Below, piece after piece: positions 15,706-36,853 of a DNA stretch of 64,000 nt; within the stretch, counting starts at the first letter, position 1, and each line of letters begins with the position of its first letter. A model generated the notes under the pieces. That model worked only from the letters and a program-made list of their open reading frames with translations. It had not been told where the DNA came from and ran no database searches. Location of the stretch: assembly GCA_031422435.1 (NCBI GenBank), contig JANPLU010000107.1, positions 50,622-114,621 of the forward strand, written 5' to 3'. The DNA comes from Acaryochloridaceae cyanobacterium VAR_48_metabat_390. GTDB lineage: Bacteria > Cyanobacteriota > Cyanobacteriia > Thermosynechococcales > Thermosynechococcaceae. The position numbers and the translations under genes are program-made.

Positions 15706-15760
15706 TTTATTAAAGTTAAGGAAGTTCAGCGTCATACTGAACTTCCTTAACTTTAATAAA
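15706..15760. repeat. Perfect 24-bp inverted repeat, 7-nt spacer
   Basis: tttattaaagttaaggaagttcag-cgtcata-ctgaacttccttaactttaataaa. Confidence 0.95.
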
Positions 15761-15967: not shown

Positions 15968-18900
15968 ATGCAAGTCTGTATCCATGAATGGTTTGAAAAA
16001 CAGGTCTGTCAAACGCCCCATGCAACTGCCGTTGTTTTTGAGACTGATAGTCTAAGCTATCAGGAACTCAACCAACGGGCTAATGCTCTGGCTCGTCATC
16101 TCCGGCAGCTCAACGTAGGGGCAGAGACGCTAGTAGGCTTATGTTTAGAGCGATCGCTCAATATGATTGTGGCGCTCTTAGCCATCCTTAAGGCAGGTGG
16201 AGCCTATGTGCCCATTGATTTGTCCTATCCCCCAGAACGAATTGCCTTCATGCTTAAGGATTCTCAAGTTTCTGTATTGCTAACAGCGCAAACCTTGACT
16301 GCGGCACTGCCGACCCATGCCGCCAAAGTGGTTTGTTTAGATACCGAATGGGAGCGCATTGCTCAAGAAGACTCCTGCAATCTTGAACCCCTAGCGGGAG
16401 CAGATAATTTAGCCTATGTAATCTATACATCTGGCTCAACGGGGCATCCTAAGGGTGCGGCGATGCCACATCGTTCTTTAGTTAATTTACTGGACTGGCA
16501 ATTACGAGCCTTTAAGGTACCCGTAGCCCGAACGCTGCAGTTTACGCCCATCAGTTTCGACGTGTCTTTCCAGGAAATTTTTTCGACTTTGGCGGGAGGC
16601 GGAACCTTAGTACTCGTCAGTGATGCAGTTCGACGCAATCCTGAAGCGTTGCTGCAGTACATTAGTCTACAGCGCATTGAGCGTCTCTTTTTGCCCTTCG
16701 TAGCTCTTCAGCATTTAGCCGAGGTGGCGATGGCTCAGACGCCACTTTTAGGCTTTGCTCTACAGGATATTATTACAGCGGGCGAACGGCTCAAAGTTAC
16801 GAACTCCATTGCACGATGGTTCAGTAGCCTCAAGGACTGTACGTTGACCAACCAATATGGACCGTCCGAAACCCATGTGGTGACATCTCATACCTTGAGT
16901 GGGTCGCCCAAGAATTGGCCAATTCTGCCTCCAATCGGACGCCCCATTGCTAATACGCAGGTTTATTTGCTCCAGGTTAACCTTCAGCGGACTCACGATG
17001 ACATTGAGTTGGCCCCTCTTGGTAAACCTGGAGAAATTGCCATTGGTGGGGCTGCGCTTGCCCAAGGCTATCTCAATCAGCCCGAATTGTCCCAACGTCG
17101 GTTTATTGCCAATCCGTTTAGCGACGAGCCGAACGCCAAGCTATACCGAACGGGCGACCTCGCTCGCTACTTGCCTGACGGAACCCTTGAATTTATCGAG
17201 CGCCTTGACAGGCAAGTCAAAATTCGCGGCGTTCGCGTTGAGTTAGGCGAAGTCGAAGCCGTTTTGGGGCAACATGCAGGGGTTAAGCAGGTGGCTGTCA
17301 TTCCTAAGGCGGATTTGACAGACCATAAAGTTTTGGCTGCATTTATTGTTCCGAGTCAAAACCCTACTGCAGAGACCAATCACCGTCAGCTCCTTCTGGA
17401 TCTCCGAGATCATCTGCGCCAAAAGCTTCCCCACTGCATGATTCCGTCAGCCTTTATGTTTCTAGATCAGCTACCTCTGACGCCATCGGGCAAGGTAGAC
17501 AACAGAGCATTGCCGAACCTTGACCAGCCGTGGATGCCCCTCAATCCTGATTTTGTTCCGCCCCGCACGCCTGTAGAGACGCGATTGACGGAAATTTGGG
17601 CGCAGACCTTAGAGATCCGTCAAGTTGGCATTGACGACAACTTCTTTGAAATGGGCGGAGACTCGCTTCGAGCCGTTCAGTTAGTGTTTCAGGTTAGAGA
17701 AGCATTCCAAATTGAATTGCCGATGGTGGCCTTGTTCGATGCGCCGACTATTTCACAATTTGCCAAGGCGGTGAACTCAGCCCTGAGGTCTTATACCGTG
17801 GCGACCTCTGATGACATAACGGTTTCAAATCTACTGGCCGATGCAGCCTTGGATCCGGTAATCGCTCCCCCACAAATCCCCTTTGTCTTTAGATCTCAGA
17901 CAGAGCATATTTTCATCACTGGCGTTACGGGTTTTTTAGGCGCGTTTCTGCTGCACGAACTGCTTGAGCAAACGACCGCTCAAGTTCATTGCTTGGTTCG
18001 CGCTAAAACTGCTGCTGAAGGCGATCGCAAAATTCAGGCTAATCTCAAAAAATACTTACTCTGGTCAGAAAACTATCGCGCTAGGGTTACATCCGTCCCT
18101 GGAGATCTAGCCCAGGCTCGACTGGGACTATCTGTAGAGGCTTTTCAGGCATTGGCTCGCCAAATGGATGTTATTTACCACAATGGAGCCGCGATTAATC
18201 TAATTTATCCCTACTCGGCACTCCGAGCGGCGAATGTGTTAGGCACACAGGAACTTTTGAAACTCGCCGCCGAGCATCACATCAAGCCCGTACACTTTAT
18301 CTCTACTCTAGATGTCTTTCAAACGACCGACTCGTTCAGCCGCAACCGCATTACCGAACAGGATCTGCTCAATCCGAGTGAAGCCATTCGTTTTGACGGA
18401 TATACCAAAAGTAAGTGGGTCTCCGAACGTCTGGTGTTTCAGGCGCGATCAAGAGGTATACCAACGGCTATCTACAGGCCAGCCATGATCTGTGGGCATA
18501 GCCAAACGGGCGCTGCTAATAAAGACGACCTGATGAACCGACTGATTCAGGGGATGGTGCAGCTAGGGAGCGCACCAGATTTTAGCGAGATGATGGTTAA
18601 CATTGCTCCCATTGATTATTTTAGTCAAGGCGCAATTTATTTATCTAGACAGGCCAGCGCCCTTGGCAAATCCTTTAACTTTGTTAACCCCCAACCCATT
18701 ACGATGGGTCAATTTGTTGAGACTATCAATACATTGGGTTATCAGGTTCGTCCGGTGGGTCATCGGGACTGGGAGAACCTGCTTGCCCAACATCGCGAAA
18801 CCCTAGATAGCGTCGTTGCCGTTTTGACATCGAAACCTACTGAAACAAGCTGGAGCTATATAGAGCGAAGTTCTGTTGGGGCATACCATGTGAGCTGCCA

Positions 18901-19039
18901 GAATGTTCTCGAAGGACTTCAGGGAACTTCTATCCGTTGTCCGGCCATCACGCCCAATCTCTTGAAACCCTGGCTTTCATTTTTGGTGAAAAACGGATTT
19001 CTTCCAAGTCCTGAAGCGCTAGAAGCCTTGGTTATCTAG
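15968..19039 (+). CDS. Stand-alone NRPS-like protein: adenylation - thiolation - thioester reductase (A-T-R), no C domain
   Basis: [48 protein letters not shown] domain [19 protein letters not shown]. Confidence 0.93.
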
Positions 19040-19092
19040 ATTTTAAGGCTAATTGTTCTTACCTCTAAACTGAGTTGACTGACAAAATAAAT

Positions 19093-19187
19093 CTCCCTAA
19101 CCCCTTCTCACCCTGTGGAAGAAGGGGTTAGGGAGTGGGTTTCTAGCTCCCCTCTCCCGTTCTGGGAGAGGGGCTGGGGGTGAGGGT
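19093..19187. repeat. REP-like double hairpin element
   Basis: 16-bp IR ctccctaaccccttct/agaaggggttagggag, then cccctctccc-gttct-gggagagggg-ctgggggtgagggt. Confidence 0.8.
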
Positions 19188-19383
19188 CTTAAGCTTTGGT
19201 TCACCAAACAGCCTCTGAGACCACGATTTGTATAGGTACAGATATAGAAAAATGTGTCGGGTCGAAAGTTCGGAATAGTTTTTGTCAATACTAAGGTAGC
19301 TTTAAGGAAAACTTGCAGGCTTCAAGGTTGAGGCAGCGGCAGTTTCTTGAGTCGCTAAAGCAGTCTAAACTTCGGGGAAAGCA

Positions 19384-22110
19384 ATGAAGCGATTCATTTT
19401 GCCCAAAATTCGCTTTTTCCGTATAAAAACAATCGGAGCTAAATTATTTTTAGCCGTGATGGGCGGTGCATTTATCGGCTTAAGTAGCGCTGCTGTTCTA
19501 TATTATCGAGTGCTGGAGTACCAATCAGAAGTTCAGATTCGCAATGCTTTGAGCACAGAGGTCAATACGATTGAGGGTCAACTTACACCTGTTAAGCAGT
19601 CTTTGATTAACTTGGGCGGGATGGTGCAGCACCTCAAAGAGACTGGTGTTCAAGATATAGGTGCTTACCAAGCGATCGCACTGGACTTTTTTCTTAAGCG
19701 TCCACCGTTGGTGATGGGACAGTCTCTACAACAAACTTCTTATGCTATCTTTGCGGATCGCAAGTGGTATGCATCGTACCATTACGCAGATCAAAAAGTT
19801 GCGGGTCAGATTGGCAAGCGTCTCCCGTTCCCCAATGGCTCCGTTCTTGTTTCTGACTTAGTTAAAGAGGATAACGCCCCCAATCAAGCCTACTTCAAGG
19901 ACACCATCGCTGCTAGCCATGACACTTGGTTGGAACCCTACGATTGGTACGGCACTTCTATGACAACCTCCAACCACCTACTCTTAGATCGCCAAGGTCG
20001 ATTGCAGGGGTTTGTGTCGATGGATGTCAACGCGACCCAATTAAGTCAGACTATCTCTCCGACGGTTTTTCGTGACACGGGCTATTTTTTTGTGATGACG
20101 CAGCGGGGGAGACTGGTTTCCTATCCGCCCGATATGAGCAAGGTGCGCCAGAGTTATCGCAGCATCCCAACCCTTGCAACCATTTGGCCGCTGCTGCAAA
20201 AAGATACCGCAGGCTTATTCCAATCTAGTGGTCAATACTGGGCTTACCAGAGAATTCCCAGTACCCAGTGGATTATGCTGGCTGTTGTTCCTGAATCCGT
20301 TGTGTTCTGGCCGGTCTTAGCCATCACTTTGGGCGGGGCAGGCATTGCCGCTATTGTATTAGCGCTGGTGGTAATTGGTTTTGTGCAGTTTCTGAATCGT
20401 CGGTTAAAGCCCGTTCTAGACGAATGCTATCGACTGGAAGCAGAAGATTTTCAGCGATCAATCCGCCTAGGTCAAACCCTTGATGAACAGAGCGCGGCTC
20501 AGCAGAATCGGCTATTCAGTTTCAGCCATTTAGACGAACTGGAGATTTTGCAACAGGTATTCTGGCGGGTTACAGCTCAGTTAAAAGCCTCCTTTGATGA
20601 CTTAGAACTGCGTGTGGCAAAGCGTACAGCTCAGTTAGACGAAGCCAGACAATCTGCTGAAAATGCTAAAGAAGTGGCGATCGCCGCGAATCAATCTAAG
20701 AGCCAGTTTTTAGCCAACATGAGTCATGAGTTGCGTACACCTCTCAACGCCATCCTAGGGTTTGCGCAGCTTATGAATCGTGAAACCCTTTTGAATCAAG
20801 ATCATGGAGAAAATCTACAAATCATCATTCGCAGTGGAGAACGCTTACTTTCATTAATCAATGACATATTAGATATGTCAAAAATTGAAGCAGGTCGAGT
20901 CAGTCTCTACAAAAGCGACTTCAACCTTTTCAAGGTATTAGACTCTGTTAGAGAAATACTCAGCTTGAGAGCAAGCGTTAAAGAACTGAAGTTTATTTTT
21001 AACTACGCAGATAATCTCCCAACCTTCATTAATACAGACGAAAAAAAATTACATCAGGTTTTACTTAATCTTTTGGGTAATGCAGTCAAATTTACAGCGT
21101 CAGGATTTGTTTCCCTCAGTGTAGAGATAGATGACGTCAAGGTGATGCCCCATGATGTCAGCCATTACTTAAGGTTTGTCGTTGAAGACAGTGGCTCTGG
21201 CATCGCTGCTCATGAATTACCTACGCTGTTTGAAACGTTTGTCCAAACTGATTCAGGTCGAAAGGCTGAACAGGGGACAGGTTTAGGTCTTTCCATTAGT
21301 CGTAAATTTGTAGAACTGATGGAGGGGCGCATACAGGTCAGCAGCACGCTGGGACAAGGGTCACGGTTTGAGTTCACCATTCCCGTCAGGCTAAGTACGG
21401 CTGACGCTCAACCGAGACAGGCTCCCGTCCAGAGAGTGGTAGGACTCGTGAAGCCGCACCTGCGCTATCGCATTTTAGTGGTAGACGATCATCCAGAAAA
21501 CCGAAAGCTGTTGGTTAAGCTGCTCCAACCCATCGGCTTTGAGGTAAAAGAGGCAGCAAATGGGCAGGAGGCGATCGCCTGCTGGGAAGTGTGGCACCCC
21601 CATCTAATCTGGATGGACATGCGAATGCCCGTACTGAGCGGTTTTAATGCCACACAACACATCAAAGCTCATCCTCAAGGACAATCTACCGTTGTGATTG
21701 CCCTCACAGCCAGCACCCTGAGTGAAGAGATTCCCAGTTTTAAGTCAGCAGGCTGTAATGACTTTGTGCGTAAGCCTTTTCTGGAATATGAGATTTTTGA
21801 TAAAATTAGTCAACACTTAAATGTAGAGTACACCTTTGAAGCACTGGTTCCCATGCTACAGGAGGCAGTACAGCCGTTGACCTCTGTAGCGCTTAGCATA
21901 ATGCCTTCAAATTGGCTAGAAGAATTAGAAAAAGCGTCCAGCCTACTTGATGAAGAAACTATTCACGCTCTAATAAACAAAATTCCACAAGAACATAGCG
22001 ACTTAAAGAAATCAATTGAAAATAAAGTGAGTAACTTTGATTTTTACCATATTTTTACAACAGTGCAACAGGTAAAACTCTATAAAAATAAATCTAAAAG
22101 CCCTGCTTGA
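19384..22110 (+). CDS. Membrane hybrid sensor histidine kinase (TM-dCache-like-TM-HisKA-HATPase-REC)
   Basis: Two TMs flanking a periplasmic W.EPY...MD domain; SHELRTPLN, NLLGNAVKFT, GTGLGL; REC ILVVDD...WMDMRMP. Confidence 0.9.
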   Translation: MKRFILPKIRFFRIKTIGAKLFLAVMGGAFIGLSSAAVLYYRVLEYQSEVQIRNALSTEVNTIEGQLTPVKQSLINLGGMVQHLKETGVQDIGAYQAIALDFFLKRPPLVMGQSLQQTSYAIFADRKWYASYHYADQKVAGQIGKRLPFPNGSVLVSDLVKEDNAPNQAYFKDTIAASHDTWLEPYDWYGTSMTTSNHLLLDRQGRLQGFVSMDVNATQLSQTISPTVFRDTGYFFVMTQRGRLVSYPPDMSKVRQSYRSIPTLATIWPLLQKDTAGLFQSSGQYWAYQRIPSTQWIMLAVVPESVVFWPVLAITLGGAGIAAIVLALVVIGFVQFLNRRLKPVLDECYRLEAEDFQRSIRLGQTLDEQSAAQQNRLFSFSHLDELEILQQVFWRVTAQLKASFDDLELRVAKRTAQLDEARQSAENAKEVAIAANQSKSQFLANMSHELRTPLNAILGFAQLMNRETLLNQDHGENLQIIIRSGERLLSLINDILDMSKIEAGRVSLYKSDFNLFKVLDSVREILSLRASVKELKFIFNYADNLPTFINTDEKKLHQVLLNLLGNAVKFTASGFVSLSVEIDDVKVMPHDVSHYLRFVVEDSGSGIAAHELPTLFETFVQTDSGRKAEQGTGLGLSISRKFVELMEGRIQVSSTLGQGSRFEFTIPVRLSTADAQPRQAPVQRVVGLVKPHLRYRILVVDDHPENRKLLVKLLQPIGFEVKEAANGQEAIACWEVWHPHLIWMDMRMPVLSGFNATQHIKAHPQGQSTVVIALTASTLSEEIPSFKSAGCNDFVRKPFLEYEIFDKISQHLNVEYTFEALVPMLQEAVQPLTSVALSIMPSNWLEELEKASSLLDEETIHALINKIPQEHSDLKKSIENKVSNFDFYHIFTTVQQVKLYKNKSKSPA

Positions 22111-22149
22111 GATGCAGTCTTGAGGGTTGATAAGCAACCCGATAGCTCA

Positions 22150-22173
22150 TACCTGCTTCAGGAGAAGCAGGTA
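22150..22173. other. 10-bp hairpin downstream of the kinase gene (possible terminator or operator)
   Basis: tacctgcttc-agga-gaagcaggta. Confidence 0.5.
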
Positions 22174-22538
22174 AAGTCGAGTTTCCCTAAAAGTTGGGAA
22201 GACTAGAGTAGGTCTCAAGATATAAGATCAGACAACTGAAGATTCAGCCTACGGCAGTCTTTAGTCACCCCAAAGACGCCTAAATTAACCAAGCTATTTT
22301 TCTATTCTCTTCGACACTCAAAGTTTATCAAGCTATATGCCATCTCACTGTAAGTCACGGTAGCTATATTTATCGCAAAAATTACGCGACCGTACTATAT
22401 TTGAGGTAGGTTAAGCCATCGCTGTTTATAAGTGATTAAAAGTAGCCTAAGCTTTTTCTATTCAATCAATTTCCACCTCATTTAGACAGAATTTTTAAGA
22501 TCATATCTACTCGCTGGCTGCAAATCGCCGTATATGTT

Positions 22539-24443
22539 ATGAAGAGTTTAAAAACGGCTATTGATTCAAAAGGCAAGATTTTACTAGTTGATGATCGCCT
22601 TGAGAATCTTGAATTACTCTCTTCAATTCTGACTAAAGCTGGGTATGAAATAAGGCGAGCAATTAATGGCGCAACTGCATTGATGGGTGTCCGTTCTGCA
22701 CCGCCAGATCTAATTTTACTAGATATCAATATGCCCGATATGAATGGCTATGAGGTCTGTCGGGAGCTGAAGAGAGATATCCAGTATCAAGATATTCCTA
22801 TTATTTTTATTAGCGCACTAGATGATGGCTTAGATAAAGTAAAAGCTTTTTCAGCTGGAGGTGTTGACTACATTTCTAAGCCGTTTGAAATGATGGAAGT
22901 GCTAAGTCGAATTGAAAATCATCTCCAAATTAGAGCAGCAAGAACAAGGTTAAAACAGTTAAATACAGAACTTGAGCAGCGGGTAGCAGAGCGCACTTCC
23001 GAACTTACTATTGCAAAGGAAAGGCTAGAACAAGAAAATCTAGAGCGTCGAAAAGCTCAGGCCATGCTAGAGCGAATGGCGTGGCACGATCCGCTAACGG
23101 ATTTACCTAATCGCTTATGGCTCATGGGGAAGTTACAGGGGTTGATTGAGCATTCTAAACAAAACGCTGCCCATCAATTTGCAGTTCTGTTTCTGGACTG
23201 CGATCGCTTCAAGATCGTCAATGATTCACTCGGTCACATGATTGGAGACAAGCTGCTTGTGGAGATCGCACATCGGCTTTCAAGCTGTTTACCAACTAAA
23301 GCATCTATCGCACGGTTTGGCGGAGATGAATTTATTTTAGTACTGGAGGAAATTAATGATTTGGATGAAGCCAAACATCTGGCCGTACAGCTTCAAGAAG
23401 CTTTAGCTGCTTCCTTCAGCATAGAACCCCATGAAATGTATGTGAGTGCCAGCATTGGCATCGTTTTAGGGAGCCGCAGCGTTGATCATCCAGAAGATTT
23501 AGTGCGAGATGCAGACATTGCCATGTATCGCGCTAAGGCATTGGGTAGGGCTAGGTACTACATTTTTAACACGAACCTCTACAATAATGCCCAAAAACGC
23601 CTGCAGTTAGAAACAGACTTACGTCGAGCCGTGGAGCGGCAAGAATTTTTTCTTCAGTATCAACCCATCGTCTCTCTCAAAAATGGCAAAATTGAGGGGT
23701 TTGAGGCATTGGTGCGCTGGAATCATCCTAAGCAAGGTCTTATTTCCCCCTTAGATTTTATTTCAGTTGCCGAAGAAACAGGGCTAATTGTGCCTCTCGG
23801 GCAATGGGTTTTAGCAGAATCCTGTCGTCAATTTCAGGCTTGGAAAGCTGAATTAAAGGCAACTGCAATAGGCGAATACAGCGCAAAGACTTTTTCGTCG
23901 CTAAAGATCAGCGTTAATCTATCAGCCAAGCAGTTCTCACAACCGGGACTGATTGACGTAATTGATAAAATTTTTGAAGATACAGATTTTGAAAGCAGCA
24001 ATCTAAACTTAGAAATTACAGAAAGCGTACTCATGGACGACCCAGAATCAAACAGTTTGATTTTGGATGCACTGAAAGATCGGCATATTCAGCTTGCGAT
24101 AGATGATTTTGGAACTGGGTATTCTTCGTTGAGCTACTTACACCGTTTCTCAGTAGATATTCTTAAAATAGATCGGTCTTTTGTGAGTCGTCTTGGCTCT
24201 AATCGGGAAGGACTATGCATTATTGAAGCGATGACTTCAATGGCCCAAAGTTTAGACATTACGGTGGTTGCTGAAGGCGTTGAGACAATTGAGCAGGCTG
24301 CTCAACTCCGGCAGTTGGGGTGTGAATACGCCCAAGGCTACTGGTTTGGCAAACCAGTAGATCCAGAATCGGCAATAAAATTGCTATTATCTTGCCCAAA
24401 CTTTAATATTCCAAATTTCTCCAATTCATTGACCGATGCTTAA
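22539..24443 (+). CDS. REC-GGDEF-EAL diguanylate cyclase/phosphodiesterase
   Basis: LLDINMP receiver, HDPLTDLPNR, ARFGGDEF, GFEALVRW, IDDFGTGYSSLSYL. Confidence 0.93.
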   Translation: MKSLKTAIDSKGKILLVDDRLENLELLSSILTKAGYEIRRAINGATALMGVRSAPPDLILLDINMPDMNGYEVCRELKRDIQYQDIPIIFISALDDGLDKVKAFSAGGVDYISKPFEMMEVLSRIENHLQIRAARTRLKQLNTELEQRVAERTSELTIAKERLEQENLERRKAQAMLERMAWHDPLTDLPNRLWLMGKLQGLIEHSKQNAAHQFAVLFLDCDRFKIVNDSLGHMIGDKLLVEIAHRLSSCLPTKASIARFGGDEFILVLEEINDLDEAKHLAVQLQEALAASFSIEPHEMYVSASIGIVLGSRSVDHPEDLVRDADIAMYRAKALGRARYYIFNTNLYNNAQKRLQLETDLRRAVERQEFFLQYQPIVSLKNGKIEGFEALVRWNHPKQGLISPLDFISVAEETGLIVPLGQWVLAESCRQFQAWKAELKATAIGEYSAKTFSSLKISVNLSAKQFSQPGLIDVIDKIFEDTDFESSNLNLEITESVLMDDPESNSLILDALKDRHIQLAIDDFGTGYSSLSYLHRFSVDILKIDRSFVSRLGSNREGLCIIEAMTSMAQSLDITVVAEGVETIEQAAQLRQLGCEYAQGYWFGKPVDPESAIKLLLSCPNFNIPNFSNSLTDA

Positions 24444-24454
24444 TAATAACTCTT

Positions 24455-26791
24455 ATGTGTCAGCAGCCTTTTATTTTGGAGAATCGTATAGAGTATCTAT
24501 TAAAAAGGGACTGCACAATTCATAACCTTATCTTCTTTAAGAAGAGTTTATATCAATTCAAAAGCATGAATCATAAAATAAAGCTCAATAATATTCTACA
24601 TAACAGTTCAGCCAAAGAAAACTTTACAAATCAAAGAAAACGCATTAAAGTATTATGTTTTTCTGAAAATAAGGATTCAAGCAGTCAACGGGTATTTGAT
24701 TTAATTTTTCATCAAGTAAAGGCTGACGTTGAAGTTCACACCACAGACGACAACAAAAAGATACTCGACTATATTAGTCAACATAAAATTGAGCTTGTTT
24801 TAATTTATCAATCTTTATCTTGTGTAGAAAACCTAGATATACTTACAGGCACTATAGGACAGATTGACATCCCCATTATTAGCATTATTGATCAAGAAAA
24901 TGAGGCGATCGCCATGGCGGCGATCAATGCAGGTGCCCAAGACTACGTCACTCTAGAAGAAATTCGAGATACAACAATTCTTCAGCGAACTATTCAGCAC
25001 ACTCTTGTGCGGCACCGTCAAAAAATCCAGCAGAACCCGCAATTTCAGGCTATGCAAACCGATCCAGGTGATCGCAATCAAGCTGAAACACTTTCAAGAG
25101 AAAATGAAGAACGTTTCCGTCTTCTAGGAGAATGCGTTCCGTTTGGAATTTTTCAGACTGATCCCTTAGGACAGCCGATTTATACTAATGCTTATTTACA
25201 AAATTTTTGTCCATCAAAATCTGGAATAAACTTTAGGGAAGGTTGGATTGATAATCTTCATCCCGACGATCAGGCTTATTTGAAAAATATTGGTGCGCTG
25301 GAGTCTAGCAAAAATTTTGGACAGAGCTGGATGGACTCTATCCATCCAGATGATCGATGGGAAATTACACAATCTTTTGAAAACTTTATTCAGGGCATTG
25401 GTTCGTTTCATTGCGAATTTCGTCTAATTCGATCTCAGGACAACATCCGCTGGGTTTTAAGCCACGGGATTCCGCTGATAGAGCAGGACGGAAAACCGAT
25501 AGGCTATGCTGCCACCATTACTGACATTACAGTTCATAAACAAGCTGAAGAAAATCTTAAGCAACTCAACGTAGAGCTTGAAAGTCGAGTTCTCGAAAGA
25601 ACTTCAGATTTGCAAAAAGCTAACCTAGAGCTCAGAATTGGCAATAAGATCCGCGAGTTTCATGAAGCGGAACGACAAGGTGCTGAGCGAGCGCTTTATA
25701 AGGCGAATGAACAGCTTCAGGCAGTCCTTGATGCTGTCCCTGGCTGTGTAGCGTGGGTGAGCGCCGATATGCGCTATCTAGGAGTAAATCGCCTCATGGC
25801 AAAGGTTTTTCAGTTAGAAGCTAAAGATTTTATTGGAAAAGAAGTTAGATCTATTAAATCTAGTACTGAGGCATATATTAAATTCGCCGAACGTTTTTTC
25901 GCAAATTCAGAAGATAGCGTTAGTGGAGAGTTAGACTTCAAGTTTAGCAAAAACAATCATAAACATTACTTACTAATTGGTCAAAAATATGCGCAAGGAA
26001 AAGCTGCTGTTTTCGTAGCCATTGAAATTACAGAACGAAAGCGTGCAGAGATTGAAACTCAACATGCCTTAGAAAAAGTAAAAGAATTAAGTGAGCTTAA
26101 ATCTAGATTTATTTTTATGGTATCTCATGAATTTCGGACTCCTCTAACGTCAATTTTTACAGCAAGCGAATTGCTAGAGCATTATAGGCATAAGTGGCCT
26201 CCAGAGAAAGTTTTACAGTATCTCAAGCAAATTCAAGAATCCGTTGAACGGATGAACAGTTTACTAGAAGATGTTCTCATTATTGGGGCGGGAGAAGTCG
26301 GCAAATTAAAACTTCAGCCCAGCGAATTAGATATTGTTGATTTCTGCAAACACTTAATTGAGGAGGCTCAGCTCTCTAAACAAAATCGCCACATTTTTAA
26401 TTTCACTCATAGTACTCAAACGCAGCGGGTGATCATTGATGCAAAACTTTTACGGCACATTCTGTCAAATTTACTGTCAAATTCTATTAAATACTCTCCA
26501 GAGAAAATGCCCATCAGTCTAAATCTATGGGGGGATAGCACACACATTACGTTTCAAGTGGTCGATTATGGCATCGGCATCCCCCCTGAAGACCAAAAAC
26601 ATCTCTTTGAACTTTTTCATCGAGCCACCAATGTGGGCACAATAGGGGGAACTGGAATTGGTTTATCGATTGTCAAAAAATCGGTAGATGCCTTAGGGGG
26701 TGAGATTTCCTTTGAGAGTAGCGTCAATGCTGGTTCAACATTTACCGTCTTAATTCCAATTAATCAGGTCAAGAGGGAGTATCAGTGGTAG
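24455..26791 (+). CDS. Pseudo-REC/PAS/PAS cytoplasmic histidine kinase (start possibly 24566)
   Basis: AINAGAQDYV, PAS IHPDDR...ITDIT, VSHEFRTPLT, NLLSNSIKYS, GTGIGL. Confidence 0.88.
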   Translation: MCQQPFILENRIEYLLKRDCTIHNLIFFKKSLYQFKSMNHKIKLNNILHNSSAKENFTNQRKRIKVLCFSENKDSSSQRVFDLIFHQVKADVEVHTTDDNKKILDYISQHKIELVLIYQSLSCVENLDILTGTIGQIDIPIISIIDQENEAIAMAAINAGAQDYVTLEEIRDTTILQRTIQHTLVRHRQKIQQNPQFQAMQTDPGDRNQAETLSRENEERFRLLGECVPFGIFQTDPLGQPIYTNAYLQNFCPSKSGINFREGWIDNLHPDDQAYLKNIGALESSKNFGQSWMDSIHPDDRWEITQSFENFIQGIGSFHCEFRLIRSQDNIRWVLSHGIPLIEQDGKPIGYAATITDITVHKQAEENLKQLNVELESRVLERTSDLQKANLELRIGNKIREFHEAERQGAERALYKANEQLQAVLDAVPGCVAWVSADMRYLGVNRLMAKVFQLEAKDFIGKEVRSIKSSTEAYIKFAERFFANSEDSVSGELDFKFSKNNHKHYLLIGQKYAQGKAAVFVAIEITERKRAEIETQHALEKVKELSELKSRFIFMVSHEFRTPLTSIFTASELLEHYRHKWPPEKVLQYLKQIQESVERMNSLLEDVLIIGAGEVGKLKLQPSELDIVDFCKHLIEEAQLSKQNRHIFNFTHSTQTQRVIIDAKLLRHILSNLLSNSIKYSPEKMPISLNLWGDSTHITFQVVDYGIGIPPEDQKHLFELFHRATNVGTIGGTGIGLSIVKKSVDALGGEISFESSVNAGSTFTVLIPINQVKREYQW

Positions 26792-27924
26792 CCAAGATTC
26801 TTGTCATCGAAGATGAACTGAATGTGCGCGAAAATTTAGTTGAGCTTTTAGAAGCTGAAGATTTTGAGGTATTCTCAGCTAAAAATGGCTTTGAAGGCAT
26901 TTCTTTAGCTCAAGAGCATCGACCGGAACTGATTCTATGCGATATAACCATGCCAGAACTGGATGGTTATGATGTTCTTAGTAACCTCCGCCAAAATTCA
27001 GAAATAGCGATAACGCCTTTTATTTTTCTGACGGCAAAGGCAGCTACTGACGAAATAAGACAGGGTATGAATTTAGGGGCTGATGACTACCTTACAAAAC
27101 CTTTCAGCCGCAAAGAACTATTGACTACTATTCAGGCAAGATTATCTAAACAAGATATCTACACAAAAAATACTGATGCTCTATTAAATGATGTAGGAGA
27201 GAGATTAAACAATATAGGGCAGAAGTTTTCGTATTCTATCTCTGAAAAGATTTTTAATCCCTTAGATGAAATTTTGGGGGCTTCAGGAATTTTTGTCCAA
27301 GATTCAGATTCTATTGAGCCTAACGATATCAAGGAGCTGGGGAATGATATCCAAGCTAATGCTCATTTTTTGAAACGGGCTATTTTAAATGTATTTGTAT
27401 ACTTAAACATGGAGCTTTTGTTTCGCAACCCAGAAGCCCTAAAAATTATTCAGAACATTTACACCATGAAGCCTGGTGACTTTGTGTTCATGATTTCTAT
27501 GGAGATGGCAAAAAAATATGAATGTTCTAAAATTTTAACGGTAAAGGCAAGCAACGCTCGCCTTAAGATCGCAACCAATGATTGGAAGAAAATCATTGAA
27601 GCATCGAATAACTTTATTTTTTCTTTGCCCAGAGAAACCTCATCATCAATAAATATTGAGACGAGTATCATAGGCGATGCATTTCAGTATTCTATTTGCT
27701 TTAAGTCTAGTGAGCTACCTTTAAGTCTGGTTCATAAAGCTTCTCAATATGCAGTTCAAAATCAAGAATTTTATGAGGAATTAGATTCTAGCTTAGGTCT
27801 CCTTATTGTTCAGTGTATTGTTAGGCTTTACGGCGGTGATTTTACGATCAAAATTGATCAGAATCCTTGGGAAGAATCTCTTCTTTTGCTTATTTCCTTA
27901 CCCCTTGCTTCCCAAGAGGGATAG
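26785..27924 (+). CDS. Response regulator fused to a degenerate histidine-kinase module
   Basis: ILVIEDE, LCDITMP, GADDYLTKPF; H-box region reads SISEKIFNPL with no His. Confidence 0.8.
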   Translation: MVAKILVIEDELNVRENLVELLEAEDFEVFSAKNGFEGISLAQEHRPELILCDITMPELDGYDVLSNLRQNSEIAITPFIFLTAKAATDEIRQGMNLGADDYLTKPFSRKELLTTIQARLSKQDIYTKNTDALLNDVGERLNNIGQKFSYSISEKIFNPLDEILGASGIFVQDSDSIEPNDIKELGNDIQANAHFLKRAILNVFVYLNMELLFRNPEALKIIQNIYTMKPGDFVFMISMEMAKKYECSKILTVKASNARLKIATNDWKKIIEASNNFIFSLPRETSSSINIETSIIGDAFQYSICFKSSELPLSLVHKASQYAVQNQEFYEELDSSLGLLIVQCIVRLYGGDFTIKIDQNPWEESLLLLISLPLASQEG

Positions 27925-32971: not shown

Positions 32972-35341
32972 ATGGAAATGACTATCTCAGATGCAGAGAC
33001 GATTGAGGAGATCGCCCACCTTATTACTCGCCACATTGATCGACAGCAGAATAGCCCCAGACAACGCGATCAGCACCCGAAACAGCATGGTTGTGTAAAA
33101 GCCTACTTTTGTATAGAACCCCACCTATGGGAAAAATTGCCCCAAGCCTGCCGCGTTGGGTTATGGCATCAGCCCCAAACCTTTTCTGCCTGGGTTCGGT
33201 TTTCTAACCTTAAAGACACCGATGATTCTAAGGGCGATATCCACGGAATGGCAGTCAAAGTCATGGTGGAAGGCGGCGATCGCAATCAGCAAGAGCCAGA
33301 GAACCAGACAACCACCCAAGACTTTGTTTTCATTGACGTGCCGCGCTTTTTCATGAAAGGAGTGCAGCCCTACCTAGAACTTTTTCAGATTTTAGATTTA
33401 GCAGCAGCCCTCAAAGATCCGTCTGTAACCGAGCCACCCTCTAAAAATAAATGGGTGCTGTTCCTGAAGATTTTAGGTCGGCTACTTGCATTTTTGTTCC
33501 CTAGCTTTTTTCCTAGTCAATGGCGCTTGCGCGAAATTTGGATTCTGGTCAGCGCCAAAATTCAGAAAAAGCGGTCTAAACTCTCTAGCCCTCTCGATCA
33601 GTCTTACTGGAGTACAACCACTTATCGCCTTGGTAATTCCGAGCAGGCCATGAAGTATTTTGTCAGACCCAGCGTGATCAACCAGGCTTCTAAGCCCAAG
33701 CGCCACACGCCCAACTATTTACGAGATGCCTTGGTAGAGCATCTCACCCATCAGCAAAAACCTGCTCGGTTTGATTTTTATATTCAGGTTAAACCAAACC
33801 CTACCCCAGCCGACCTCGATGACCCCACCACAGAATGGAAGGATGCTCCAGAATACAAAGTTGCCACGATTGAAATTCCGCCCCAGCAGTTTTACACAGC
33901 GGCAGAACCAGCCTTTGGCGAAGATTTTTCGTTTACGCCCTGGCTCTGTTTACCAGAGCATGAACCCTTAGGCAGCATTAATACCATTCGCCGTTTGGTT
34001 TATCAGCAGGCGGCTCAGCGCCGTAATAACCTAAACCAGAAAGCAGGTTTGTCTTCACCTAAGCCACCGCAAGAATTGCCTAGGCAATCGCCCATCGGAC
34101 AGTCCCCCCTCACTGCAATTTTCCCCTTGCGTCCCGACACTTTCGATGCACTTAAGCTTGAGCTAGCGCAAGTTGCCGAGCAGATTAAAGATCGTACCAA
34201 CACGTTCTTTATAAAATCGCCCTCCACCCACTTTGCCCGCTGGGTGATTTTGGATGATCCTGAGCAAAATGTTGCGCCCCATCTGCTGTTTGTCAGCAAC
34301 CACGACGGTTCTGCTACAGCGTATCTCCAAGAGCTAGTGGAAACTATGGGCGCTGAGATGGAAGCCATCTGGATGCACTGCGAAGGCTTTAACCCTGGCG
34401 ATGCCCTAGATGCTGAAACCTTTACGCGGTTTGTTTTGAAGTATGCGCTCAACACCCAAGCCTTTTATGTCGGCTGTCGAGACACAACGGCTCAAGAAAT
34501 TTTGGCCGCTAAAACGCTGCGTCAGCGAATTGATCAGCTTGCCCAAGCCCGCGCCGCCGATCTCGAAGCCCCGCTGACAGAACTCTCTGCCCTCACCCCA
34601 GCAAGACCGCCGGACTCGCCCTTTCCTCTAGGGCTGCTTCCCCTTGTGGGGCTGTCTCGCACCCTTTCGCTGGGGCTACAGTCTTGGGTGGGCATTTTCC
34701 CGCAGCGCAATAACCCAGGCGATCGATTTAAGCCCTTGCCCAACCAATTGGCTCGAATGCAGACCTGCGATCAGATTGAAGACCAGTTGGTTGCCAATGG
34801 CATTTTGCCCAATCAGCTCACTACGCTGTCACCTATTAAGTCTGAGTTTCATAAGTTCATGCTTAAGACAACGCTGTGGCTGATCAATCAGGTAGCGAAA
34901 ACCTCACGGGGTACGCTGGTGGGCATTTCTACTATTCACTTTGCGCGATGGGTGATTGTCGATAAAGGCATCCTCAACAATAGCCGCACGTCTTACCTCA
35001 TTTTTGAAAGCAACTATCGGGGCAGTTGGGACAGCTATCTGGATGATTTTGTTTACAAAACCCTCATCCCCATGAATCTGCTGTGGGGGAATTTAGAAGG
35101 CTTTCCGAGTAAGGGCTGTCAAGATATTGAGATGTTTAAGCAGCACCAGCGGCCTCGTCAGTTTCCGGCGCAGGTGTATTACTGCGCCTATCCAGAACTA
35201 ACGGTGCAAAATATTGTGTGCGATCGCAATTTAGCCAAGGCCATCAGAGATCTTAAAGACTACCTCAGCGGTGCCTATAGCCTTCTCTCTACTGCACAAG
35301 ATCCGCTGTTGATGCGTCTAATTAAATTGATGGGTGAGTAA
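32972..35341 (+). CDS. Catalase-like heme domain fused to two tandem uncharacterised 'HFARW' domains
   Basis: RDQHPKQHGC, WVRFSN, GMAVKV, FTPW...HEPLGSIN.IRRLVY; then THFARW..LLFVSNHDG and IHFARW..LIFESNYRGSWDSYL. Confidence 0.8.
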   Translation: MEMTISDAETIEEIAHLITRHIDRQQNSPRQRDQHPKQHGCVKAYFCIEPHLWEKLPQACRVGLWHQPQTFSAWVRFSNLKDTDDSKGDIHGMAVKVMVEGGDRNQQEPENQTTTQDFVFIDVPRFFMKGVQPYLELFQILDLAAALKDPSVTEPPSKNKWVLFLKILGRLLAFLFPSFFPSQWRLREIWILVSAKIQKKRSKLSSPLDQSYWSTTTYRLGNSEQAMKYFVRPSVINQASKPKRHTPNYLRDALVEHLTHQQKPARFDFYIQVKPNPTPADLDDPTTEWKDAPEYKVATIEIPPQQFYTAAEPAFGEDFSFTPWLCLPEHEPLGSINTIRRLVYQQAAQRRNNLNQKAGLSSPKPPQELPRQSPIGQSPLTAIFPLRPDTFDALKLELAQVAEQIKDRTNTFFIKSPSTHFARWVILDDPEQNVAPHLLFVSNHDGSATAYLQELVETMGAEMEAIWMHCEGFNPGDALDAETFTRFVLKYALNTQAFYVGCRDTTAQEILAAKTLRQRIDQLAQARAADLEAPLTELSALTPARPPDSPFPLGLLPLVGLSRTLSLGLQSWVGIFPQRNNPGDRFKPLPNQLARMQTCDQIEDQLVANGILPNQLTTLSPIKSEFHKFMLKTTLWLINQVAKTSRGTLVGISTIHFARWVIVDKGILNNSRTSYLIFESNYRGSWDSYLDDFVYKTLIPMNLLWGNLEGFPSKGCQDIEMFKQHQRPRQFPAQVYYCAYPELTVQNIVCDRNLAKAIRDLKDYLSGAYSLLSTAQDPLLMRLIKLMGE

Positions 35342-35380
35342 GTTCAGTCGTGATTGTGATGCAGTGTAGAGGAGTTTTCC

Positions 35381-36853
35381 ATGCTGAGTGCAGAACCGAG
35401 CGAGGAACCACAGGTCGAGACTTCCCTTGAGCTAAAAGAGATTCAGGGCATTATTGTGAGCGGCTATGGTCACTTGTCTCATTCCAAGTATCTGTTTGTA
35501 CAGATTGAGAATGCAGAGAAGGCCAAAGACTGGCTGCGATCGCTCCTTAAAAACCACCGCATCACCAGCGCTCAGCGGGATGCAAAGCCTCTTGTTGCCG
35601 TGAATTTAGCGCTAACCTATGCAGGGCTGCAAAAGCTGAACGCCTCAGACGATTTACTGCAAAGTTTCCCGAAAGAATTTGTCGAAGGCATGACCACACC
35701 CAAGAAGTCAGAGCAGCTTGGCGATCTGGGTATTAACGCCCCCCAATATTGGGGAAAACCCTATCATCCCAACTCAGAAGCGGTTGATCTTCTGCTCATT
35801 TTGCAGGCAGGTGCAGAAGCCCTAGATGCACTTTACACCGAATATGAGAGGCAGCTAGAACCCAATGGCCTAAAGCTTCTCACGGTTGAGACAGGGTATA
35901 TCCCAGCAGACAGCAAAGAGCATTTTGGCTTCTATGACAGTATTTCTCAGCCAATTATTGAGGGTAGCCCCCAAGAGAGTAAGGCGAAAAACAGTAGCGC
36001 CCAAGACCTCACCAAAGCCGGAGAATTTATCTTGGGCTATCTCAATGAGGATGGCAACTATCCTTCTACCCCAACCGTTCCCACCTCTCAAGATCATACC
36101 CACGTCCTACCGCTGCTGCCCGAAACGGCGCTTAAAGACTTTGGACGCAACGGCAGCTACTTTGTCTTTCGCAAAATCGCCCAAGATGTGGCAGGCTTCC
36201 GGCGATATTTTCAGGAATCATTCAGCACTCCTGAAGAACGCACCCTTATGATGTCTAAGGTGGTGGGGCGGTGGCCTTCCGGTGCCCCGTTGGTGCAGGC
36301 ACCAGAGGCAGATCCTTTGGGCGATCGCCTCCCCAATAACGACTTCTTAGCAAACCATAACGACTTCACTTACCGCACCGAAGACCCCCAAGGCTTCCGC
36401 TGCCCGTTTAGTAGCCACATTCGCCGCACCAATCCACGAGATTCTTTAGGGCAAGATGCCGACGAATCAATCAAAAGTTCACGGCGGCGACGGCTATTGC
36501 GCCGAGGCGCTGTCTATGGCGACCCGCTCCCCCAAGGCATTACAGAAGATGATGGACAGGCTAGAGGACTGCTGTTTTTTTGCATCAATGCCAATATCCG
36601 GCGACAGTTTGAGTTTGTGCAGCAAAGCTGGGTGAACGCCCCCACCTTTAATGGCCTGTACGATGAGCGTGACCCGCTAGTAGGCTATAACCCTGACAAC
36701 TTACCGCGCACAATGGTGATTCCTCAAGTGCCCCTCAGCCGAAGCCTTAGCCTGCCTAACTTTGTCACCCTCAAAGGCGGAGCCTATTTTTTCTTGCCTA
36801 GCCTTTCAGCACTAAACTTTCTGGCGGCAGTATCGGTTCCGGCTCAGCGCTGA
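35381..36853 (+). CDS. Long DyP-type heme peroxidase
   Basis: EIQGII, EHFGFYDSISQP, GEFILGY, NGSYFVFRKIAQDV, SHIRRTNPRD, LLRRG, QFEFVQ, GGAYFFLPS. Confidence 0.9.
   Translation: MLSAEPSEEPQVETSLELKEIQGIIVSGYGHLSHSKYLFVQIENAEKAKDWLRSLLKNHRITSAQRDAKPLVAVNLALTYAGLQKLNASDDLLQSFPKEFVEGMTTPKKSEQLGDLGINAPQYWGKPYHPNSEAVDLLLILQAGAEALDALYTEYERQLEPNGLKLLTVETGYIPADSKEHFGFYDSISQPIIEGSPQESKAKNSSAQDLTKAGEFILGYLNEDGNYPSTPTVPTSQDHTHVLPLLPETALKDFGRNGSYFVFRKIAQDVAGFRRYFQESFSTPEERTLMMSKVVGRWPSGAPLVQAPEADPLGDRLPNNDFLANHNDFTYRTEDPQGFRCPFSSHIRRTNPRDSLGQDADESIKSSRRRRLLRRGAVYGDPLPQGITEDDGQARGLLFFCINANIRRQFEFVQQSWVNAPTFNGLYDERDPLVGYNPDNLPRTMVIPQVPLSRSLSLPNFVTLKGGAYFFLPSLSALNFLAAVSVPAQR

Follow-up and report, generated by a model that had tools for sequence, protein, structure and literature searches.

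The DNA stretch analysed here in its entire length of 64,000 nucleotides (hereafter the window) comes from contig JANPLU010000107.1 of Acaryochloridaceae cyanobacterium VAR_48_metabat_390. It holds a one-module reductase gene related to nonribosomal peptide synthetases (NRPSs), with adenylation, carrier and reductase domains (A-T-R), followed by the gene of a membrane sensor kinase with a periplasmic dCache_1 domain and by three other signalling genes. A first-pass annotation had described five co-directional genes, with no tailoring, transport or other NRPS genes adjacent, and had compared them to a synthase-plus-receptor cassette wired to cyclic di-GMP (c-di-GMP). All five genes were found on the forward strand at the positions given in that annotation (Table 1), and according to Pfam none of the flanking genes belongs to the categories said to be missing, the neighbours being signalling genes, a CxxCxxCC protein and an APH-family kinase. 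As for the cassette itself, the conserved unit is formed by the first two genes, i.e. the A-T-R enzyme and the dCache hybrid kinase.

Table 1. Genes, domains and repeats of the locus, in window coordinates (TM, transmembrane helix)
Feature	Position	Strand	Size or basis
Gene 1, stand-alone A-T-R enzyme (adenylation, carrier, reductase), proposed signal synthase	15968..19039	+	1023 aa; Pfam, NCBIfam
Gene 2, membrane hybrid histidine kinase (TM-dCache_1-TM-HisKA-HATPase-REC), proposed receptor	19384..22110	+	908 aa
Periplasmic dCache_1 domain of gene 2, aa 40-316	19501..20331	+	predicted model, fold search, pocket alignment
Gene 3, REC-GGDEF-EAL, first gene of the resident three-gene module	22539..24443	+	Pfam, motifs
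Gene 4, soluble pseudo-REC-PAS histidine kinase, resident module	24455..26791	+	Pfam
Gene 5, REC and degenerate kinase-like domain without phospho-His, resident module	26785..27924	+	Pfam, motifs
Inverted repeat (24 bp, perfect), found once in the genome, some 210 bp before the A-T-R start	15706..15760	.	repeat scan, genome blastn
Dispersed palindromic repeat between the A-T-R and kinase genes	19093..19190	.	46 genome blastn hits, self-hits included

Gene 1 combines AMP-binding, PP-binding and NAD_binding_4 domains in a single chain, without any condensation domain in Pfam or NCBIfam, and its motifs are intact (carrier Ser566, GxxGxxG at 652-658 and Tyr812/Lys816). Its closest named protein (85%) is from an Acaryochloridaceae cyanobacterium. 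Only two NRPS-type genes are present in the genome, which encodes one PF01648 protein (Sfp-like phosphopantetheinyl transferase, 269 aa). The ten-residue specificity code obtained by alignment, DVQFIAQVVK, is of the proline type, and the two best PDB matches of the pocket region are tyrocidine synthetase 2 TycB (9bfd_B) and gramicidin S synthetase 2 GrsB (8p5o), with E values of about 1e-19 vs. 1e-13 for the next match. The proline-specific first modules of TycB and GrsB differ from gene 1 at two of the ten code positions, and since one of these changes is from His to Gln, the substrate may be an analogue of proline. Pipecolate is a conceivable though less favoured candidate: no cyclodeaminase for lysine or ornithine passed the cut-off in this genome, and a literature search for the specificity-code strings retrieved no paper.

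Concerning the reductase (R) domain, it is nearest to that of MxaA (E 1.6e-84) and far from that of AusA (8e-13), and the best NCBIfam match of gene 1 is MxcG. Since the MxaA and MxcG reductases presumably give alcohols, prolinol is the most likely product to be predicted from these similarities, prolinal or its dimer possibly coming second. A pyrazine-type product, one of the possibilities mentioned in the first-pass annotation, is unlikely, because the pocket is of the proline type and a secondary amine should be unable to form a neutral aromatic pyrazine.

Gene 2 has TM helices at 21-39 and 319-337, a HisKA domain with His448, a HATPase domain and a REC domain with Asp745. Its dCache_1 match in Pfam (E 1.8e-7, 31 bits) falls below the curated cut-off of 45, and the fold was confirmed by an AlphaFold model (pLDDT, the predicted local distance difference test, 93.7) and by a fold search, the region between the two TM helices consisting of a long helix and two PAS-like modules. 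The best fold match reached Z 24.9 (root-mean-square deviation 3.1, 253 residues aligned), and the top matches include receptors for choline, betaine, proline betaine, histamine and putrescine (Z 22.2-24.9), with the first amino-acid-bound entry below these amine receptors at Z 20.7, bearing in mind that entries within 1 Z are tied and that differences in domain length may account for some of the gap. In the alignment with PctC, the carboxylate-binding Arg (R126 in PctA) is replaced by Gln168, and the same Arg is absent from all 26 paired sensors of the dCache clade that contains gene 2 (the window's clade). Loss of this Arg has been named as what chiefly sets amine dCache sensors apart from those for amino acids (PMC10589655).

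The pocket of gene 2 is made up of Asp214, Tyr186-x-Trp188 and Gln168; the platform Asp214 (equivalent to D173 of PctA) is present in 54/54 sensors of the window's clade, and Trp188 in 51/54. As compared with the dCache_1AM reference motif (R103, D133, W155, F188/Y189, M215, S217 and D235 of PctD), the residues that may be equivalent are Arg106, Tyr170/Phe171, Met193, Thr195 and Asp214. The dCache domain of CqsR binds 2-amino alcohols via its platform Asp (PMC12410723), and its pocket residues Tyr169, Asp171, Thr196 and Asp198 may correspond, by position, to Tyr186, Trp188, Ser212 and Asp214; CqsR entries are absent among the fold matches listed, which still leaves such a likeness possible. 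At the site of Trp188, Tyr-x-Trp is found in 26/26 paired sensors of the window's clade and Tyr-x-Asp in 10/10 sensors of the primary-amine clade considered below, a difference that would fit a ligand with one N-H fewer for the window's clade. Chemoreceptor-type proteins encoded in what look like taxis operons (L227, L232, L236, L297 and similar loci) also carry domains of the window's dCache clade, mostly with unchanged pocket residues; a domain marker of low sensitivity flagged seven chemoreceptors and left 16 proteins as other or cut.

The linkage of A-T-R and Cache-kinase homologues expected from a synthase-plus-receptor cassette was observed in other cyanobacterial genomes. Among loci collected via the enzyme and read at the level of open reading frames, a dCache sensor was present within 2.5 kb in 27 of the 41 stand-alone A-T-R loci vs. 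1 of the 131 loci with an A domain and no R domain, this sole positive (L032) being a split A-T-R; as for the longer A...R genes, the proportion is 4/35, two of the four having been fetched by their sensor. A few of these loci are near-duplicates, e.g. L119/L184. Pfam independently finds dCache_1 or MCP-like_PDC_1 in the paired sensors that were scanned. With the code of the window's enzyme, the sensor is directly downstream in 12/12 other loci (11 stand-alone DVQF(I/V)AQVVK enzymes and the split L032). When each part was searched separately in 400 genomes of the class, each of the four best enzyme hits (50-59%) was followed directly by one of the four best sensor hits (47-57%), and in the genome of the window, three of the six dCache_1 hits adjoin its two NRPS-type genes. 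Such enzymes are found in pairs with sensors of three distant dCache clades and with a permease-like sensor, some of the pairs being convergent or divergent. In L016, the sensor domain was kept (82%) while the kinase core was replaced (31%).

Two further loci are worth recording. The second system of the same genome (G000:C30:148772-159917, i.e. L022:8773-19918) comprises a REC-GGDEF-EAL gene, an A-T-R enzyme with an embedded methyltransferase (A-MT-T-R) and a basic-type code, an NNMT-family methyltransferase and two dCache-HAMP kinases. L023, from a record labelled as a Rhizobium metagenome-assembled genome, carries this cassette, otherwise cyanobacterial, at 59-64% identity, a mis-binned contig being the simplest reading.

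The clade of the sensor was then compared with the product class predicted for the enzyme. In a first set of 28 pairs, three sensor clades (13, 9 and 6 pairs) coincided in membership with the A-domain clades and spanned host families, the reductase and kinase trees being mixed relative to them; this match could arise by co-inheritance alone. Among the next 20 window-clade loci, taken from the sensor side, two had an enzyme, both with a non-proline code and an embedded methyltransferase, the insert of one of them being nearest to the TioS methyltransferase. The failure, in these two cases out of two (L224 and L233), of the strict prediction that window-clade sensors stand beside proline-code enzymes led to a secondary-amine rule, according to which the window's clade reads proline or N-methyl-Gly/Ala products (neither Gly nor Ala has a side-chain O or S). 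For 13 new small-residue A-MT-T-R loci, chosen prospectively by their enzyme, ten sensors were of the window's clade and none of the primary-amine clade; one of the remaining loci has a permease-like sensor and two have no sensor, one of them at a contig end.

The code DLFNNALTY occurs with both clades: when the enzyme carries a methyltransferase, the sensor belongs to the window's clade in 6/6 pairs, and when it carries none, to the second clade, the primary-amine clade, in 7/7 pairs (six with this code and one with a one-letter variant). L243, chosen by its second-clade sensor, also has a Gly-code enzyme without methyltransferase. As a whole, product class and sensor clade agree in 48/48 pairs (26 + 10 + 12), the classes being proline or N-methylated Gly/Ala, unmethylated Gly/Ala, and basic residues; L253, L254, L113, L021, L288 (a fragment), L032 and L119 (split genes), and L179, L214 and L266 (permease-like sensors) are left out of this count. 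Changes of sensor type numbered 2 on the sensor tree, 6 on the A tree, 6 on the R tree and 13 on the kinase-core tree, vs. about 19 with shuffled labels. The kinase cores are thus shuffled relative to the sensors (13 changes vs. 2), and the enzymes paired with the primary-amine clade do not form a single A-domain clade (p 2.8e-6 in the approximately unbiased test).

The following observations weigh against matched enzymes and sensors. The strict prediction failed, the secondary-amine rule was formed only afterwards, and the amino-acid names given to the non-proline codes are tentative. Independent contrasts number only three on well-supported branches (five on all branches), all in the same direction (p 0.25). 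L253 and L254, condensation-domain-containing C-A-T-R enzymes with a basic code, adjoin sensors of the primary-amine clade, and L113 (a two-module enzyme) and L021 (with its sensors 4.1 kb away) are also misfits. As for the linkage, the profiles that detect the sensors were built from paired sensors, and the reductase-less control loci are mostly inside larger clusters. No sensor lies within 2.5 kb in 14 of the 41 stand-alone loci (three of these 14 end at a contig edge, and L021 is another of the 14), and with the canonical code DVQFIAHVVK, a sensor is present in only 2/8 loci and absent from 6/8. Conversely, 35 of the 54 fetched window-clade sensors, which are not a random sample, have no reductase gene within 2.5 kb, their pocket being mostly kept, and in 17 of the 19 lower-ranked second-clade loci the stretch fetched contains no NRPS. 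Because synthase-less sensors are so many, the clade may read common environmental amines, and such sensors may be eavesdroppers or general amine sensors. Finally, no exporter is adjacent to the pair, and the palindromic repeat between its two genes leaves their co-transcription open.

Several relatives have unusual architectures. L113:9971-17617 encodes a two-module NRPS, module 1 having the window's code and module 2 a Gly-type code with methyltransferase and reductase; a dCache kinase is found 1.3 kb away on the other strand. At L179:14319-17648, L214:6341-9403 and L266:2582-6775, the gene that directly follows a Gly/Ala-type reductase enzyme encodes a multi-TM domain resembling amino-acid permeases, joined to a kinase or GGDEF-EAL output; these proteins represent a fourth, unrelated type of candidate receptor. 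At L214:9539-13717 and L233:4721-5950, an alanine racemase is fused to, or stands beside, enzymes with the codes D(L/M)PQLGMVW, which suggests a D-alanine-derived product. PilZ-like domains are inserted in the A domain of A-T-R or C-A-T-R enzymes in P0026, P0097, L253:2-5794 (which also has an N-terminal EAL domain) and L254:1199-6034; judged by eye, these inserts keep DxSxxG and not the full RxxxR; they may nevertheless bind c-di-GMP, and a feedback on synthesis through them is possible.

Taken together, the linkage and the sensor clades that follow product chemistry sustain the synthase-plus-receptor part of the earlier proposal, in which the pyrazine and, as shown below, the unity of the five genes are not supported. 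We consider it rather probable that the A-T-R enzyme makes a signal for which the dCache hybrid kinase is the matching receptor, the kinase sensing the product of the enzyme, probably prolinol. In the scheme that we infer from the domains and their motifs, the single Sfp-like phosphopantetheinyl transferase of the genome would prime the enzyme, which would activate L-proline (or a close cyclic imino acid), load it on Ser566 and reduce it with NAD(P)H, releasing a small secondary amine, most likely prolinol and possibly prolinal. This product would reach the periplasm or the medium and bind, via Asp214, in the membrane-distal pocket of the dCache domain, where Trp188 and further aromatic residues would surround its N-alkyl part. 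Binding would shift the activity of the His448 kinase, and the REC-GGDEF-EAL protein of the resident module would probably take the phosphate and alter c-di-GMP, other cyanobacteria attaching other outputs; the response may also depend on cell density.

An alternative keeps the same pair and changes the ligand: prolinal would dimerise to a tricyclic dihydropyrazine or piperazine, and the sensor would read this dimer. All the linkage evidence fits this scheme equally well. In Xenorhabdus, the amino aldehyde set free by ATRed forms a pyrazine on dimerisation (PMC7586950), and while R domains release aldehydes or alcohols, they can indeed stop at the aldehyde (PMC10510592). We nevertheless regard a dimeric ligand as unlikely: the R domain is nearer to MxaA and MxcG, the presumed alcohol-formers, than to AusA, proline and N-methyl residues should be unable to aromatise to a neutral pyrazine, and the Tyr-x-Asp...Asp of the primary-amine clade resembles the 2-amino-alcohol pattern of CqsR (PMC12410723).

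It is also improbable that the kinase is an ordinary regulator, sensing the substrate or an environmental amine, with the product doing another job in defence, osmotic balance or metabolism. Regulators commonly flank biosynthetic genes, and the many clade sensors without a synthase nearby, some of them chemoreceptors, as well as the several canonical proline-code enzymes without a sensor, would be accounted for. The switch of sensor clade with the methyltransferase at a constant substrate code, however, is not needed by a substrate sensor; in addition, the carboxylate-binding Arg is absent, and Pfam detects no DNA-binding regulator in the locus.

Taken to its full extent, the first-pass annotation would make all five genes a single dedicated circuit, inherited together, in which c-di-GMP is the fixed output; this extended reading now has little probability. 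Gene 3 has REC Asp62 and intact GGDEF, EAL and DDFGTG motifs. Gene 4 has a degenerate REC (Tyr at the Asp site), a PAS domain, HisKA His558 and a HATPase domain; alignments with its relatives begin at residue 42-51, which puts its true start probably some 40 codons further on. Gene 5, the start of which overlaps the stop of gene 4 (26785 vs. 26791), has REC Asp53, an LvrA hybrid-kinase model covering 3-352 and no H-box His; its earlier designation as a REC-pseudokinase is plausible, the His-less kinase-like part being suggested by the model and a BLAST comparison with one REC-kinase having aligned only the REC. No Hpt domain was detected by Pfam at the locus. The common direction of the genes and the overlap of genes 4 and 5 speak for a single circuit, as do the fusion, in G005, of the same sensor front (82%) to a gene-4-type kinase (54%), the GGDEF/EAL genes near the related pairs L017, L019, L020, L181, L186 and L022, and the PilZ-like inserts or EAL fusion in some members. 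Close gene 3 orthologues, however, are found in two of the nine same-genus genomes (G009, 78%; G002, 75%), where genes 3-5 occupy this site as a group, next to an 842-aa neighbour shared with the window, and the A-T-R/dCache pair is missing; in G009, a complete genome, a Ser/Thr-kinase-AAA-GAF hybrid kinase is located upstream instead. The guanine-plus-cytosine content likewise drops from 0.50 in the enzyme and 0.48 in the sensor front to 0.43 in the kinase back and 0.37-0.43 in genes 3-5 (genome mean 0.49), and the outputs of related pairs vary between REC-GGDEF(-EAL), REC-SpoIIE, REC-kinase and nucleotide cyclase. Judging from these sequence comparisons, the enzyme and the sensor front appear to have been joined to a resident phosphorelay, and coupling to c-di-GMP is likely here without being general, i.e. 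it would be a frequent rather than a fixed output.

That enzyme and sensor merely travel together as a cassette in signalling-rich regions, without any functional link, would suit the few independent contrasts and the gene order shared by related genomes, and is very improbable in view of the distinct sensor types and orientations of the pairs, the sensor domain retained in L016 and the reductase-less NRPS loci devoid of such sensors.

The matched pair can be compared with several known systems. Gene adjacency characterises the Rpf and CqsA/CqsS systems; in the present family, the synthase is conserved next to a membrane sensor kinase and the two vary in a matching way. Rpf of Xanthomonas, which uses the diffusible signal factor (DSF), comprises the RpfF synthase, the RpfC sensor kinase and the RpfG c-di-GMP phosphodiesterase, and CqsA/CqsS is its counterpart in Vibrio for this comparison (PMC13220807). 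Like them, the window combines a signal synthase with a membrane sensor kinase, a REC-linked c-di-GMP enzyme being present as well. Unlike in Rpf/DSF and CqsA/CqsS, the synthase is a minimal NRPS reductase and the receptor a periplasmic dCache_1 domain, neither family being shared with them, an amine derived from an amino acid is predicted as the signal, and the output can be exchanged. Compared with CqsR and the dCache_1AM receptors (PctD, PacA, McpX, MkcA and the M. mazei kinases), the sensor shares the dCache fold, the platform Asp and the lack of the carboxylate Arg, whereas those receptors are described as sensors of ethanolamine, choline or betaines and not of the product of an adjacent NRPS; in addition, Trp stands where the CqsR-type pocket has its second Asp.

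PvfC of Pseudomonas is reportedly an A-T-R enzyme too, which is also implied by the work on ATRed of Xenorhabdus indica, a single-gene A-T-R enzyme that turns Phe into a pyrazine and whose function was not addressed there (PMC7586950). ATRed differs from the window's enzyme, whose pocket is of the proline type and which has a sensor as its conserved partner. Pvf (PvfC) and Ham of Burkholderia (HamD, valdiazen) are small NRPS systems making autoinducing signals from amino acids, and the Pvf receptor is stated to be unknown (PMC10194917). Unlike Pvf and Ham, the window's locus has no N-oxygenase or accessory genes and, unlike in Pvf, its candidate receptor is encoded by the next gene.

No synthase-receptor pair is known to be well established in cyanobacteria. 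A full-text literature search, with most subscription papers outside its scope, gave no description of an A-T-R/dCache pair in these bacteria, and the string 'cyanobacteri' is absent from a 2026 quorum-sensing review. Two candidate precedents were discarded: cluster family CF-8 (Calteau et al. 2014), considered as a possible sensor-linked one-gene NRPS, is an olefin polyketide synthase (PMC4247773, PMC8472315), and a cycad-root preprint (10.1101/121160) describes other clusters.

More tentatively, and at slightly less than even chances, the locus could belong to a family of cell-to-cell signals that extends across the cyanobacterial class. One-module NRPS reductases would then write a combinatorial amino-alcohol code, set by the choice of amino acid and by the presence or absence of N-methylation, for matched dCache clades to read, and other cells would listen in on, or approach, the producers by means of such domains on chemoreceptors and on kinases that lack a synthase. 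Such a family names the candidate enzyme, the ligand class and the receptor together, and the predicted ligands (prolinol, alaninol, ethanolamine and their N-methyl forms) are simple compounds. If this were true, many orphan one-gene NRPS loci would obtain a function, orphan dCache receptors would obtain a ligand rule by which the ligands of dozens of them could be predicted from the neighbouring enzyme, and a handle on mat, biofilm and motility behaviour might be gained.

Concerning the non-coding features, the inverted repeat upstream of gene 1 is possibly an operator or an RNA hairpin. The Rfam scan of the window gave no match, and the promoter scan (19 hits vs. 22.9 expected by chance) and terminator scan (13 vs. 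12.0) stayed at chance level. The contigs of a second run were letter-for-letter identical to the pieces listed, no single contig covering the whole stretch. Further downstream, positions 32972-36853 of the window encode a 789-aa protein, which resembles a catalase by eye and has no match in Pfam or NCBIfam, and after it a DyP-type peroxidase.

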